Source of the DNA: a virus
Length of the DNA stretch: 10,755 nt
Reading direction: 5' to 3' (one strand)
Virus record (IMG/VR): IMGVR_UViG_3300029133_000269
Span: 1 to 10,755 of that record
Positions within the stretch are counted from its first letter, which is position 1, and each line of letters starts with the position of its first letter. The notes beneath the pieces were generated by a model. The model had not been told where the DNA came from. It was given only the letters and a program-made list of their open reading frames with translations, and made no database searches. Of this stretch, positions 3,910 to 9,523 are shown in pieces. The translations under genes were made by a program, and so were the position numbers.

Positions 3910-3931
3910 AAAGTTCGAACGTTCGAACTTT
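3910..3931. repeat. 22-bp perfect palindrome AAAGTTCGAACGTTCGAACTTT (copy of the 16-bp GTTCGAACGTTCGAAC element)
   Basis: Read directly; self-complementary over 22 bp. Lies about 110 nt upstream of the coat-like gene start. Confidence 0.9.
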
Positions 3932-4482
3932 AGAGGGTGTGACGGGAGTTGAACCCGTAAGCAAGTAGCTTTCAGATATCATTGTGCGCACTGCTCTTGT
4001 TTGCCTGGTACATTCGCACCCCATATTATTTTTTTGGTTGTTGGGTTATGTGTTGCTGTTGCATGGGTGAGGGGTGATACTTTGTGTACCATTCCGAACC
4101 CCTCCCATGAAAAACTACGAAAGCAAAATACGCTTTTCTTGTTTTTCTATTGCGTCCCCTTGCCCCCTCCCAAGGGGACGAAAGGTCAAGGGCAAAAGCG
4201 CTTGATCTGGGAACTGGTAAAAATATAATTGCTTATAGTCAGGCTGAACCTTCCGGGCTTCACCCTTGCCACAGATAACAAAGTGATGCAGTTTTTAAGG
4301 GCAAGGGCATCACCAACAAAGAAAAGCGGGTGGCGGCAGACGGTAGTTGTTTGGCTATGGTCTGCGCTGTGGCTGTCCGGGGACTTTGTAAGGGCTGTTA
4401 ACATCTTTTTGCGCCGGGAGGTGGGATAGTGCGCCCACATCCCGGCAAGATGCAAAAAGATCAAGGGCGGATTTGTTAGTGG

Positions 4483-4629
4483 TTAGTCGTCATAAACGTC
4501 ACTGAATGCCACAAGAGACAAAAAAGAGGCAAGAAACGCAAGTATTACCATCCACCAATCAATAGGATCGCCAAGTAAAAAATCAACCACTACAACCGCC
4601 ACGCCGATCAAAAAAAATATAAGTCCCAT
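4483..4629 (-). CDS. Small membrane protein, 48 aa from the ATG at 4629 (MGLIFFLIGVAVVVVDFLLGDPIDWWMVILAFLASFLSLVAFSDVYDD)
   Basis: Two hydrophobic helices and an acidic C-terminus. The GGAAGG RBS is weak. The longer track ORF 4483..4752 has an implausible N-terminal extension. Confidence 0.4.
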   Translation of the reverse strand: MGLIFFLIGVAVVVVDFLLGDPIDWWMVILAFLASFLSLVAFSDVYDD

Positions 4630-4718
4630 AGTGTTTACCTTCCTATATAGAAAAAGCCGGGAATGTATCCACGTTCGTTTCTTCTGGGTACTAGCGCACA
4701 TAAAAGGTAAAGGGGTAA

Positions 4719-4734
4719 GTTCGAACGTTCGAAC
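4719..4734. repeat. 16-bp perfect palindrome GTTCGAACGTTCGAAC, copy 2
   Basis: Read directly. Lies upstream of the 48-aa gene, in a GGGGTAAG context similar to the copy at 3913. Confidence 0.9.
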
Positions 4735-4897
4735 ACTCCCGGCGTTTTTCACTTCACACTTGCCCGGCAGTCTGTAGGGAGACTAACCGGGCATCACACC
4801 GGAGAACGTACCGGGGAGAAGATCGCAAGGGGCACACCATGAAAATGAGATGTGATCACTTCTCTTTACTCCCTAGACCCGGAACGTTCCAAGCGGC

Positions 4898-5203
4898 TTA
4901 TTTCTTATCCTTATCTTTGCCGGGATCAGCGGCGGCAGTACCGGGGGCGGTAGCAGTTCCGGGGAGATCATAGATACCAGTCACACGCAGAGTCTTTTTA
5001 CCCTCATACTCACTGATCTGCATACCGAACACGTAGTCCTTGAAAAGTTCCTTGTTCTGCTTATAGACTTCCTCTGTACAGGACAAGCTTGTTGCTTCCG
5101 ATCCCTGCAAAACAGCTAACTGGTAATACTTGCCATTGCTTCCAGTCATGCTCTTTTCTTCGATTGCTACCAAAGTACCTCTAAACTGTGTTGCTAATTT
5201 CAT
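4898..5203 (-). CDS. Hypothetical protein, 101 aa. It may be an OB-fold ssDNA-binding protein (gV-like by size and position), with a Lys-rich disordered C-terminal tail.
   Basis: RBS AGAAGAGGTAAACAATTATG. C-terminal tail PGTATAPGTAAADPGKDKDKK. A 10-bp palindrome GGAACGTTCC (4881..4890) lies 8 nt past the stop. Confidence 0.6.
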   Translation of the reverse strand: MKLATQFRGTLVAIEEKSMTGSNGKYYQLAVLQGSEATSLSCTEEVYKQNKELFKDYVFGMQISEYEGKKTLRVTGIYDLPGTATAPGTAAADPGKDKDKK

Positions 5204-5281
5204 AATTGTTTACCTCTTCTTTCTTTACACATGGAGCGGTCAGCACCATGGGAATAATGTTATTTGTTATATACTGAACGC

Positions 5282-7072: not shown

Positions 7073-7074
7073 TT

Positions 7075-8088
7075 TTACATGCCTTTCATATCATTAGAGG
7101 ACTTACCGCCGAACATACGCCGGGGGTAATTGTTCAACCACTCTTGCACCTCTGCGACTTGCTCCGGGGTAACATCCGCAAAGTCACAGCCTTTAGGAAA
7201 CCAACGGCGAATCATGCGGTTCTGGTTCTCATTACTTCCACGTTCTCCGGGGTTGTGAGGGTGACAGTAGTATATTGTCGTTCTGGGTTCACCGCCGTTT
7301 ATAGACTTTTCAAGTGCTTGCTGATCGAGAAACTCCGTGCCGTTATCGCAAGTGATCGAGCGGAATATCTCCCGGAACTTATCAGAGCCATAAGCACGTT
7401 CCAGATCATCAAGGGCGCAAGAAACAGCGTTCCCGGTCTTGTCTGGTATCGGCATAATAATTTCATCACGGTGTTTACGCTCTGTGAGAACAAGTAAACA
7501 ATTACTGCTTTTTCCTTGTCCACCAACAACGGTGTCAAGTTCCCAGTGTCCGGCGGTCTTACGCTTCTTAATCTCACGTGGACGTTCTTCTATAGATCTT
7601 CCCTTTAGATTCTTGTAAGACGGACGAACTTCGTTATATTCTCGTTTTGGCGTATCTCTGCGCCACGGTAGATCCTTATTAGTCACGTTCATAAACAAGC
7701 CACGGTCAATGTAATTATACAAAGTAGTTACGCAAACTTCTGTGCGGCATTTGCCTTTAGCGGACTGTAAAGCGGCATACGGACTATATTTTAAGTCAAT
7801 AATACAATGTTCAACGTGATTCACAAAATCGTAATCATTGCCAATTTTCAAGTCGCGCCCTTTACCTTCTGCATGGTAGTCATGTTTCTGCTGTCCGATC
7901 TCTGCACTGTAATAGTCGTATTCGAGCCACGTCTGTCCGTCTCGTAGTTTTGTGCGCCCTCTCTTTATCTCATAATTGATTGTGTTATAATGTCTGCCAA
8001 GCAATACCGCAATTTCTCTTTGTGTTTTGTGTTCTTTCAAGTACAATTCGATTTTCAAACGTTCCGTGTAAGTCATATTTTTTGACAT
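7075..8088 (-). CDS. IS30-family DDE transposase, 337 aa
   Basis: N-terminal HTH (REIAVLLGRHYNTINYEIKRG). Catalytic-region signatures GHWELD, ITCDNGTEF and YYCHPHNPGERGSNENQNRMIRRWFPKG. RBS GGGAGGAAACTTTATG. Confidence 0.9.
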   Translation of the reverse strand: MSKNMTYTERLKIELYLKEHKTQREIAVLLGRHYNTINYEIKRGRTKLRDGQTWLEYDYYSAEIGQQKHDYHAEGKGRDLKIGNDYDFVNHVEHCIIDLKYSPYAALQSAKGKCRTEVCVTTLYNYIDRGLFMNVTNKDLPWRRDTPKREYNEVRPSYKNLKGRSIEERPREIKKRKTAGHWELDTVVGGQGKSSNCLLVLTERKHRDEIIMPIPDKTGNAVSCALDDLERAYGSDKFREIFRSITCDNGTEFLDQQALEKSINGGEPRTTIYYCHPHNPGERGSNENQNRMIRRWFPKGCDFADVTPEQVAEVQEWLNNYPRRMFGGKSSNDMKGM

Positions 8089-8439
8089 AAAGTTTCCTCC
8101 CTCTCTGGCGGCAGTCTGCCTATAATCAACCGTACCAGAGCAAGCCCCGGAGCGTCAAGGAGGGCGGTGTCTATGGGGCTGTGCCTTGACCCTCTGCGGC
8201 TTCTCTGGTGGGGCTTCTGGCGGCGGTAGTGAGGGATAGCTTGTATTATATCTGTCCGGGTCTTATGGCTCTGTATGGGGCTTGTGGGAGAGGTGGCTTC
8301 CAGAGAACAGACAGTTCTCTGGACTCTCGTGTTTAATTTTTATGGGGAGTGGACGGAAAAATTAACAGAGGTGGGATGAAATCACCCCCAACCCCTCAAG
8401 GGGTGTAAAGCTTCCTTGTGGGTGTCCAGGGTGATCTGT

Positions 8440-9198
8440 TTAATACTTTAGTTCGTAATAGGTTATTTGTTGGTTTGCCTGCGGTATGTCCACGGTTTTA
8501 ACATAGACTATTCGGTCAGCGTAGATTTTGCGAAAGTCCTCTTCATCAAGAAGAAAGTGTTCTTCCTCCGCAATGTGGCAGTTACGACTGTAATAATAGC
8601 GGCGTTTCTCTTTCAAGTGTTCGTCAACGCTTTTCGTGATGTATTTTGTAATATAACTACTCACTCTGCCAGTGTCTAAAACTTTTGTAGCGGTAGTAAA
8701 ACCGTATGACCAGTCAGTAATATTATAAATGATCTGATTTTTTTTGCGGTCAATTTTCCACGCCTTAAATGTGAGATTGTCCACGTTTGCAAGTAGTCCG
8801 TGAAAATGATAATGTTCCTTATCTTTATGTAATTCTGGAACTATGATGTATTTCATATCCGGGCACTTTCGTTTTTGTAGATTGTTGAGGAAAATTTTAA
8901 GCCGGTATAAAACTAGATCATAGTCAGATGCATCTGTTTTGGTACGGTCAAAAGTCAGAGTGATAAACCAATCCCATTTGTTAGACCTTGCAATTCTGTA
9001 AACGTTGTTTTTGGCTCTGGATGCAGAAACCGTCATTGCATGCTTTTCAGCTTCCGGGGTGCGGTCACTTATGTCATGGGTTTTGTTTAGCAAGCTGTCC
9101 TCTGGCTTTTCTTTCCCGGCGTTAATAGCATGATGATAAAATGTGATGTGTTCCCCGGTCTCATACTGGTAACGCCGACAATTATAAACTGTTTCCAT
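8440..9198 (-). CDS. rep: Rolling-circle replication initiator, 252 aa (HUH endonuclease, superfamily I, phiX174 gpA / phage CRI-like)
   Basis: Motif I FITLTF, motif II HYHFHGLL (HUH) and motif III YITKYITK (two catalytic Tyr). RBS AAGGAG 9 nt before the ATG. Confidence 0.85.
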   Translation of the reverse strand: METVYNCRRYQYETGEHITFYHHAINAGKEKPEDSLLNKTHDISDRTPEAEKHAMTVSASRAKNNVYRIARSNKWDWFITLTFDRTKTDASDYDLVLYRLKIFLNNLQKRKCPDMKYIIVPELHKDKEHYHFHGLLANVDNLTFKAWKIDRKKNQIIYNITDWSYGFTTATKVLDTGRVSSYITKYITKSVDEHLKEKRRYYYSRNCHIAEEEHFLLDEEDFRKIYADRIVYVKTVDIPQANQQITYYELKY

Positions 9199-9251
9199 GT
9201 TTCAACACTCCTTGTAATTTTTTGCAAGGTGACTCTAAAGTGTTGCTATTG

Positions 9252-9476
9252 TCAAGTAGGTGACCCGGTGAACGGGTCACAGTCTGCTTTTGTCCATGTA
9301 CTTTCTTCTTTTTGTAATAGAAATAATCTGTCCATTTCTTTCTGAATGGGTTTGAATGATTCTCTGGAGAACCCCAGATTTTGAAGTTGTTGAAATAGTT
9401 CGTCTGGAAATAGTTTATACTTTTTATAAAATCTGATCTCTGTTTCGTTAAACAGATAGTGCATATATTGAAACAT
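9252..9476 (-). CDS. Hypothetical protein, 74 aa from the ATG at 9476 (MFQYMHYLFNETEIRFYKKYKLFPDELFQQ...)
   Basis: RBS AAGGAGAAAAAACAATG lies downstream of palindrome copy 1 and a CACACACC tract. The track ORF extends further upstream without RBS support. Confidence 0.5.
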   Translation of the reverse strand: MFQYMHYLFNETEIRFYKKYKLFPDELFQQLQNLGFSRESFKPIQKEMDRLFLLQKEESTWTKADCDPFTGSPT

Positions 9477-9507
9477 TGTTTTTTCTCCTTGTGTGTGGTG
9501 TGTGAAA

Positions 9508-9523
9508 GTTCGAACGTTCGAAC
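9508..9523. repeat. 16-bp perfect palindrome GTTCGAACGTTCGAAC, copy 1, in the 5' leader of the 74-aa-rep unit
   Basis: Read directly. Followed on the minus strand by TTTCACACACCACACACAAGGAG. Confidence 0.9.

Follow-up and report, generated by a model that had tools for sequence, protein, structure and literature searches.

The viral DNA analysed here is IMG/VR record IMGVR_UViG_3300029133_000269, taken over its whole length of 10,755 nucleotides (the window). It carries a 16-bp palindrome, GTTCGAACGTTCGAAC, repeated at the boundaries of its gene blocks, and a gene for a 270-residue protein, p270, with a central helix-turn-helix (HTH) domain. Our analysis suggests that the palindromes are probably double-stranded DNA operators for dimers of the phage's own p270, which would act as a global regulator of the KorB-like or stoperator-like kind. 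Physical binding of p270 to the sites is likely; repression or a roadblock as its outcome is about as likely as not, activation being the alternative. This reading is based on the enrichment and placement of the sites, on the fold of the protein, on the co-occurrence of protein and sites, and on the co-variation of recognition helix and half-site across lineages and virus types. An earlier reading of the same DNA from its letters (the sequence-only reading) had proposed both binding and global repression, which we likewise infer.

Repeated palindromes at gene-block boundaries

The first 99 bases of the window recur at its end, so that the genome is a circle of 10,656 bp. All genes lie on the minus strand except 507..854 (plus). 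The palindromic sites are the following.

3913..3928: site 1, exact copy, extended to the perfect 22-bp palindrome AAAGTTCGAACGTTCGAACTTT (3910-3931)
4719..4734: site 2, exact copy, about 87 nt upstream of the small membrane-protein gene 4483..4632 (minus strand)
6807..6822: site 3, exact copy, perfect over 18 bp with its flanks, in the leader of the p148-p270 operon
7057..7072: site 4, one mismatch (GTTCGAACGTACGAAC), 2 nt past the transposase stop codon and followed by a terminator hairpin
9508..9523: site 5, exact copy, between the stop of the Zot-like gene (9567) and the Shine-Dalgarno sequence (SD) and ATG (9478) of the unit formed by a 98-aa open reading frame (ORF) and Rep
4881..4890: core-only palindrome GGAACGTTCC, just past the stop of the 101-aa gene, matching the full site at 10 of 16 positions

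The four exact copies and the one-mismatch copy lie where the sequence-only reading had put them, and the 22-bp extension of site 1 is correct. When up to three mismatches were allowed, six matches to the 16-mer were observed against 0.03 expected, a count reached in 0 of 200 shuffles; one of them, a three-mismatch match at 9500, is a mere offset of the 9508 copy. The 8-mer half-site GTTCGAAC occurs nine times (0.2 expected), always within the palindrome sites. None of the five sites is coding, in agreement with the claim that every copy is intergenic; the chance probability is about 0.18^5 = 2e-4, the gene set used spanning 82% of the genome and leaving a non-coding share of 18%. The sites themselves are perfect palindromes and their flanks are mildly asymmetric. 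Two flanking motifs had been assigned to the wrong copies: CACACACAAGGAG followed by ATG, attributed to copies 1 and 3, stands after the copies at 6807 and 9508 (minus strand coding), and GGGGTAA, attributed to copies 2 and 4, precedes the copies at 3913 and 4719. The core-only palindrome named in the same reading is present, but its relevance as a functional site is doubtful. GAACGTTC occurs five times in the genome.

The 16-mer is kept where its surroundings change. At site 1, about 78 nt upstream of the coat-protein gene start (3835, minus strand), it is unchanged in 6 of 7 relatives while the flanks vary; at site 2 it is retained among relatives with divergent neighbouring sequence; at site 5 it is invariant in 8 relatives. 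A site at or adjoining the transposase stop codon, as at site 4, was also found in L079, L080, L081, L082, L086, L092 and L094 (L numbers designate the compared phage sequences).

The p270 protein

5524..6336, minus strand: p270 gene (270 aa), the proposed binder, with the DNA-binding domain at about residues 60-185 (nt 5782-6159)

In the predicted structure of p270 the central HTH domain has the ParB/KorB fold; the helix-turn-helix GYKNIYDYAAKEHGIARGTCSDFIHIVERF corresponds to residues 101-130 (nt 5947-6036). The model further comprises a disordered, Lys/Arg-rich segment (residues 1-40), one long helix (41-75), an acidic linker (186-221) and a small C-terminal module (222-270), which is conserved and was modelled at a predicted local distance difference test score (pLDDT) of only 58-80. 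The symmetry of the sites would imply that p270 is a dimer.

No match to p270 was obtained in a Pfam/NCBIfam scan. The ParB/KorB profiles (HTH_ParB, KorB, ParBc) matched neither p270 nor seven homologues (hmmscan, E up to 10), and phmmer and hmmsearch against PDB sequences returned no significant match. The N-terminal ParB/Srx CTPase domain with its GxxRxxA box is absent from the p270 model and from the scans, and also from the family members of 333-490 aa that were scanned. Lacking both a profile match and the CTPase domain, p270 is not a member of the ParB/KorB family and resembles it at the fold level only; of the "ParB/KorB-like protein" proposed earlier, the HTH domain fold stands and the family membership does not. 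A ParA/IncC gene was found neither among the ten largest ORFs (Pfam, PHROGs) nor among seven ORFs searched with NCBIfam, the only NTPase-like gene being the Zot/pI-like one.

The p270 family is large, with at least 3,300 clusters at 50% identity (E up to 1e-3), and the 90%-identity cluster of the window protein alone has 1,362 member sequences. Predicted structures matching p270 belong to uncharacterised proteins of gut 'Inoviridae', 'Podoviridae' and 'Siphoviridae'. DUF3102 (PF11300) is the one described family to which it can be linked: several members, though not the window protein, matched almost the whole profile at E 4e-4 to 1e-2; all p270-family scores are below its gathering threshold, and DUF3102 has no assigned function. 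In the literature we found no description of the p270 family or of these sites.

Two further observations concern the p270 gene. Almost all inovirus-type p270 proteins have the N-terminal motif MNPP (residues 31-36, nt 6229-6246), which the podovirus-type proteins described below lack; it may serve as a peptide for docking to a partner, either an inovirus-specific one or one of the host. A parS-like 16-mer with two mismatches, CGTTCCACGTGCAATA, lies at 5980-5995 in the codons for the helix residues GIARGT, a marginal match that was equalled in 9 of 200 shuffles.

Palindromes switch as a set between lineages

The exact 16-mer is kept in the close relatives L001-L005, L007, L008 and L077 (75-97% protein identity), with drifting flanks. 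In the prophage of Kineothrix alysoides, whose proteins are 35-57% identical to those of the window (Rep 57%, transposase 48%, p270 37%), three exact and two one-mismatch copies were found (at 4018, 4954, 6522, 9648 and 11080 of L078), each 2-20 nt before an SD. The absence of the palindromes from homologous phages, which the sequence-only reading had named as a refutation of its proposal, was thus not observed.

Other prophages of the same gene order contain zero GTTCGAAC and have a palindrome of their own at the equivalent places. In total about 13 lineages were distinguished, each with its own palindrome type (GTTCGAAC-, GTTCAAAC-, GTCCAAAC-, TTCCGAAC-, TTCCACAC-, GTTCAAT- or GTTCGAC-). The number of sites per genome is 5 in the window and 4-10 in 13 related lineages. 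The palindromes include:

L079: TTCCGAACGTTCGGAA, 7 copies
L080: TTCCACACGTGTGGAA, 5 copies
L081/L082: GTTCAATAATTGAAC
L086 and L092: GTCCAAACGTTTGGAC, 7 and 6 copies
L088: GTTCAAACGTTTGAAC, 5 copies
L093: GTTCRAACGTYYGAAC, 4 copies
L094: GTTCGAACGTTCGAAC, 4 copies

Because sites that are identical within a genome switch as a set between genomes, a sequence-specific, phage-encoded factor acting in trans is indicated. In every lineage examined one site is directly upstream of the p270-like gene or operon. Other sites precede the coat/structural block and the Rep block, and precede and/or abut the transposase gene. The dyad symmetry runs through the centre of the sites (AACGTT, CACGTG or odd-length 15-mers), which fits recognition of the duplex by a dimer and not a hairpin that needs a loop. 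No consistent promoter emerged from a search around 59 sites in 10 lineages; only two sites, both in L080, have a good promoter, with a -10 box ending 14-17 nt upstream. Among inoviruses co-occurrence cannot single out the binder, since p270, Rep, the transposase and the 101-aa protein always accompany one another.

Recognition helix and half-site vary together

Across lineages the half-site varies together with the start of the p270 recognition helix. Helices starting (A/S)-R-G-T pair with GTTC(G/A)A(A/C) half-sites, and those starting K-(S/Q/T)-(T/S), with a Tyr two residues on, pair with (G/T)TCC half-sites. The helix starts are as follows.

(A/S)-R-G-T group: window ARGTCSDF, L007 AKGTCNNF, L078 ARGTANNF, L094 ARGTTNNF, L093 ARGTCSNF, L088 ARGTTSNF, podoviruses SRGTTSDA
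K-group: L086 AKSTAYNF and L092 AKQTAYNF, with GTCCAAAC; L079 QKTSTYNF, with TTCCGAAC; L080 RKSTVYKF, with TTCCACAC
L081: GRTSTYNY, with GTTCAAT

The podovirus case is independent of inovirus phylogeny: the same helix start is found there with the same outer GTTCGA.

The protein-palindrome pair recurs in phi29-like podoviruses

L006, L089, L090 and L091 are phi29-like podoviruses of about 13.5-14 kb with a gp16 ATPase, a Phi29 major capsid protein, a connector and a single-stranded DNA-binding protein. In each, the first gene, situated at one end of the genome, encodes a p270-like protein with the HTH GYKNIY(D/E)Y..H(G/Y)ISRGTTSDAIN, and each has 5-10 copies of GTTCGAC(R)CGTCGAAC or of the 15-bp GTTCGAC(R)GTCGAAC, mostly just before an SD. 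No Rep or transposase match was found in the examined 10.8-11.1 kb (approximately) of these 13.5-14.0-kb contigs. Since the pairing of protein and palindrome recurs without a match to either, it is independent of every other inovirus gene.

Besides their palindromes, these podoviruses have a perfect parS of the Firmicutes type, TGTTTCACGTGAAACA, which lies within the p270-like gene or close to it (948-963 in L006; 378-393 in L089). Phi29 itself has Spo0J-binding parS sites, which are used for genome entrapment in spores.

The phage is a transposon with a promoter at its circle junction

The window phage is an inovirus-like (filamentous) phage of gut Lachnospiraceae. Relatives were found integrated in Lachnospiraceae genomes, including that of the isolate Kineothrix alysoides KNHs209 (the prophage L078), and a megablast of the whole genome against GenBank phages gave no match. 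The phage is itself a transposon, and the palindromes are not its ends.

6869..6922, minus strand: joined transposon ends; the right end stops at 6897 (...TTGACATTTACA), the spacer TA is at 6896-6895 and the left end starts at 6894 (TGAAAATTATATAAT...)
6880..6908, minus strand: junction promoter TTGACA-17-TATAAT, with 12/12 consensus matches, the only such site in the genome
6836..6879, minus strand: hairpin with an 11-bp stem and a T-run, between the junction promoter and site 3, its 5' arm within the left inverted repeat
7075..8088, minus strand: IS30-family DDE transposase (NCBIfam transpos_IS30, 5e-63; phrog_4646, 7e-106)

The termini at 6894/6897 were located from host-phage junctions in L003, L004, L005, L077, L078, L079, L086 and L088. 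In L003, L004, L005 and L077 the phage sequence ends ...TTGACATTTACA on the right and begins TG(T/A)AAAT... on the left; L004 and L077 continue into host DNA, and 15-bp direct repeats, different in L003 and L005, stand at both ends of these two contigs. Imperfect inverted repeats of about 26 bp have the form TG(T/A)AAAT...TTGTGAT. Copies of AAATTATTTACGTTT flank the Kineothrix prophage 8,365 bp apart, and L079, L086 and L088 have 14-15-bp direct repeats with end sequences as in the window relatives. Such 14-15-bp repeats flank five further prophages; they are unrelated in sequence and lie at different host sites. The target duplications of IS30 are usually 2-3 bp, far shorter than those seen here. 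The transposase, the only integrase-like gene of the phage, is its integrase and not the palindrome binder. A transposable filamentous phage is thereby described, with an IS30-type transposase, 15-bp duplications and a circle-only promoter, which explains elements reported as unexplained in a 2026 preprint (bioRxiv 10.64898/2026.07.08.737213).

The junction promoter has its -35 box in the right end of the phage and its -10 box in the left end and reads into site 3 and the p270 operon. Spanning the joined ends, it exists in the circular form alone. For five further lineages, too, a spacing of 17 bp between the -35 box (right end) and the -10 box (left end) would result if 2 bp separated the ends, and the arrangement resembles the junction promoters of insertion sequence circles. 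Site 3 lies about 58 nt downstream of the -10 box and 23 nt before the ATG at 6783; its equivalents are 58-71 nt inside the left end in the window, L078, L079 and L088. The intervening hairpin at 6836-6879 shows a compensatory double change in L003 (C-G to A-T; AGTCTTGTGAT/ATCACAAGACT versus AGTATTGTGAT/ATCACAATACT) and could be an attenuator, an insulator or a second transposase-binding repeat.

Alternative explanations

The sites might instead be promoter elements for positive control, at which p270 recruits or redirects RNA polymerase so that transcription starts just downstream with short SD-containing leaders, p270 being an activator or specificity factor of later modules. This would account for the lack of a recognisable sigma-70 promoter before the structural and replication blocks, for the position of the sites 10-36 nt upstream of start codons in most lineages, and for the podovirus arrangement, where the p270-like gene comes first at one genome end and sites stand before capsid, connector and other late genes. 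A perfect palindrome, however, has no direction; some sites come after the last gene and before a terminator (7057; 11996 in L079; 12037 in L080) or inside coding sequence (956, 8352 and 10746 in L089; 693 in L090); KorB and ParB, which are closest to p270 in structure, repress or silence; and the two L080 sites lying 14-17 nt downstream of good -10 boxes are in operator position. We regard positive control as unlikely. A centromere-like or genome-organising role, with the palindromes as parS-like loading or bridging sites through which p270 clusters or segregates the replicative form in the manner of ParB-parS or KorB-IncC, is quite unlikely, even though the ParB/KorB-type fold, the multi-copy 16-bp palindromes and the Lys/Arg-rich disordered N-terminus would suit it and the host-type TGTTTCACGTGAAACA of the podovirus relatives indicates that this phage group uses partition machinery. 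It is opposed by the lack of a ParA/IncC-type ATPase gene and of the N-terminal CTPase domain that ParB needs for spreading or sliding, by the dispersal of the sites at gene boundaries instead of in a cluster, and by the presence of the same system in small phi29-like podoviruses, which are of a lytic phage type. Like phi29, these should replicate as linear, protein-primed genomes, for which plasmid-type partition has no obvious use. Of the likeness to KorB operators or parS sites proposed in the sequence-only reading, the operator part is therefore retained, the positions being kept while the sequence switches with the recognition helix, and the pairing of protein and sites recurring in podoviruses, and the partition part is not, given the missing CTPase domain and ParA.

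The same reading had offered an RNA-level hairpin as an alternative, and this is weak. A short hairpin 5' of the SD, independent of p270 and serving mRNA processing, 5'-end stabilisation or translation control, would agree with the placement of most sites 0-10 nt before an SD and with predicted hairpins of -5.5 to -9.6 kcal/mol; site 3913 stands directly after a T-arm-like hairpin with compensatory changes that could be a processing signal. Yet there is no co-variation within sites, copies are identical in each genome, and variants break pairs as often as they keep them. The symmetry runs through the would-be loop, 15-bp odd-length versions exist, the stems are of 6 bp with modest z-scores, some sites have no following gene, and structure alone fails to explain why sets switch with an HTH protein. 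The sites show neither a GC-rich stem with a U-run nor a relevant Rfam match, and only 7057, on the plus strand, passes a simple terminator scan. Altogether an RNA element is improbable. The palindromes were also considered as abutted IS30-type inverted-repeat junctions because 26-nt inverted repeats that include palindromes (7054-7079 / 9501-9526) bracket the Rep and transposase segment and IS30 circles carry abutted inverted repeats. IS30 also prefers palindromic hot spots, so that the sites could be hot-spot-like targets of the transposase N-terminal HTH; in most lineages a site abuts the transposase stop, and the first HTH groups by lineage. This candidate was rejected, and we hold it to be extremely unlikely: the true ends at 6894 and 6897 differ in sequence (TGAAAAT... 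and ...CATTTACA), the target duplications are unrelated to the palindrome, and the podoviruses have sites and a p270-like gene with no transposase match in the examined parts. In the closest IS30 elements known from plasmids (Clostridium sp. CM028, 45% identity; Subdoligranulum variabile, 42%), GTTCGAAC is missing from the ends and their vicinity, although these elements are too distant to decide the matter. Just as remote is a host factor, be it a LacI-, LexA- or ParB/Noc-type regulator or a restriction-related sequence (TTCGAA, AACGTT). It would explain why an unrelated tailed phage has the identical 16-mer three times, and the motif does contain two restriction-type hexamers, but phages with related Lachnospiraceae hosts have different palindromes, which change along with a phage protein, some 12 kb of Kineothrix chromosome on the prophage flanks contain no half-site, and across IMG/VR multi-copy occurrence is limited to this phage family and one tailed-phage lineage. 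The LexA Cheo box (GAAC-N4-GTTC) and LacI-family operators with central AACGTT were considered as candidates and rejected for unfit spacing or length and, again, for the lineage-specific variation.

Several points weigh against p270 operators as well. The tailed phage just mentioned, an unrelated lineage of 38-50 kb, has three identical GTTCGAACGTTCGAAC (5511 in L012; 2989 and 11585 in L024; also L014, L021 and L072), all following a stop codon and in two cases immediately preceding the next SD; its contigs include IMGVR_UViG_3300017987_000186 and 3300029267_001908. Tblastn and two hidden Markov model searches covering about 55-65% of the contigs gave no p270-like ORF, and viral scans with p270 patterns did not retrieve its contigs. 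Within the inoviruses the co-variation of helix and half-site is confounded with phylogeny and may in part be shared ancestry; the first HTH of the transposase groups by lineage too, and the window and L078 have the same site with helices that differ at four positions. Most sites finish 0-10 nt before an SD, as an RNA-level element would also do. Beyond the junction promoter, the neighbourhood of the sites yielded no convincing sigma-70 promoter. Finally, the KorB/ParB likeness of p270 comes from a modelled fold, with no significant sequence match in Pfam, NCBIfam or PDB sequences.

Proposed mechanism and comparison with known systems

As operators, the palindromes would allow a p270 dimer bound at block boundaries to gate transcription. 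The site in its own operon leader, just downstream of the junction promoter, would provide autoregulation. The remaining sites would control entry to the small membrane-protein gene, to the structural/assembly block and to the replication block, with one site just past the transposase gene. A roadblock to elongating RNA polymerase would be likelier than the covering of promoters, since the usual place of a site is past a stop codon and ahead of the next ribosome-binding site, and no promoter can be recognised upstream. In this way a single phage protein could set the expression level of every module on a co-directional circular genome.

By analogy, the systems that it would most resemble in its working are the KorB-OB operators and the mycobacteriophage stoperators. 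KorB acts with OB operators in the IncP plasmid RK2 (PMC11790492; structure 1r71). Unlike KorB, p270 has no ParB-type N-terminal CTPase domain, which makes a CTP-dependent sliding clamp unlikely, and it shows no significant sequence similarity; no KorA/TrbA-like or IncC/ParA partner was recognised in the phage. OB is 13 bp long, whereas the phage sites are of 15-16 bp, abut the ribosome-binding site and occur in phages of Gram-positive anaerobes. Stoperators, bound in Cluster A mycobacteriophages by the L5/Bxb1 repressor gp71 (PMC9283540, PMC6550527), share with the phage sites their many identical copies, the short intergenic gaps in co-directional operons, the co-variation of site and repressor by lineage (immunity groups) and the proposed action as a roadblock to elongation. 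They differ in being asymmetric 13-bp sequences whose orientation relative to transcription is fixed and whose two-domain repressor binds as a monomer, while the phage sites are perfect palindromes, implying a dimer, and the protein fold is unrelated. Compared with ParB/Spo0J-parS and with Noc and its binding sites (NBS), the phage lacks the CTPase domain, ParA and clustering near the origin, and its sites differ from the Firmicutes parS consensus; the podovirus relatives carry true parS besides their own sites.

A broader reading, possible but tentative, is that the p270 family is a widespread, unrecognised class of phage master regulators that silence whole genomes, using a KorB/ParB-type domain without the CTPase clamp on 15-16-bp palindromes before ribosome-binding sites. 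Such regulators would act by a roadblock, perhaps also by a transcribed hairpin, and their helix/half-site pairs would diversify into immunity-like specificity groups. The CTPase clamp would have been lost or never acquired. In the transposable inoviruses expression would be coupled to the excised state, because the first operator stands just downstream of a promoter that exists only with the ends joined. Through the operator reading, a large unannotated family common in human-gut phages acquires a function that can be tested and a pattern of DNA recognition that can be read, with the prophage of Kineothrix alysoides KNHs209 as a cultured system. It also suggests that small phages of anaerobic Firmicutes coordinate all their modules by one ParB-fold protein and dispersed palindromes.

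Palindromes and metagenome assembly

Metagenome contigs often break at or beside the palindromes (L002 at both ends, L001 and L004 at their starts, L007 at its end). Several IMG/VR contigs are broken in this way, and their copy numbers are therefore minima. The 16-bp "terminal repeat" of L002 is the palindrome itself and a false indication of a complete circle. A loss of 6823-7056 in L002 by deletion between palindromes was considered and rejected: the contig begins and ends exactly in the palindrome and other contigs break there, which points to an assembly break. Repeated palindromes can thus both fragment assemblies and produce false terminal repeats.

Other features of the genome

9567..10478, minus strand: Zot/pI-like morphogenesis protein (weak PHROG matches)
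8440..9198, minus strand: G2P-type rolling-circle Rep (PF23343, 2e-14)

Further window genes encode a 656-aa adsorption-like protein and small, hydrophobic proteins of coat-like type. Behind the conserved palindrome and CACACACAAGGAG leader, the first gene is a swappable cassette (6337-6783 in the window; 1914-2333 in L077; 41-500 in L002; 127-348 in L003): the window and L005 encode a protein of 148 aa here, and close relatives have an unrelated protein of 139 aa or other genes. Variation of this kind also affects the p82 gene (5282..5530).

Directly upstream of site 1, on the minus strand, lies a hairpin resembling a tRNA T-arm (ACGGG-TTCAACT-CCCGT, 3942-3958), which has three compensatory stem versions among relatives (GC/AU/CG and UA/CG) and is part of a 550-nt GC-rich non-coding stretch (3929-4480). 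ARAGORN found no tRNA gene at the sites and Rfam gave no relevant match at E up to 1; the hairpin is possibly an RNA-processing signal or an origin element. Directly upstream of site 5, at the end of the Zot-like gene, a GC-rich hairpin (9524-9557; 11-bp stem, 12-nt loop) is nearly invariant in 8 relatives.

Between Rep and the transposase, the 350 nt at 8089-8439 are non-coding and GC-rich (about 48%) with a positive GC skew, and may be a replication origin. A gene starting MDENITIQ... (1-434 joined to 10620-10656, minus strand) runs over the point where the circle was arbitrarily opened and is therefore absent from the ORF list. The 132-aa ORF at 70..468 is another frame of this region and is nevertheless conserved among relatives.

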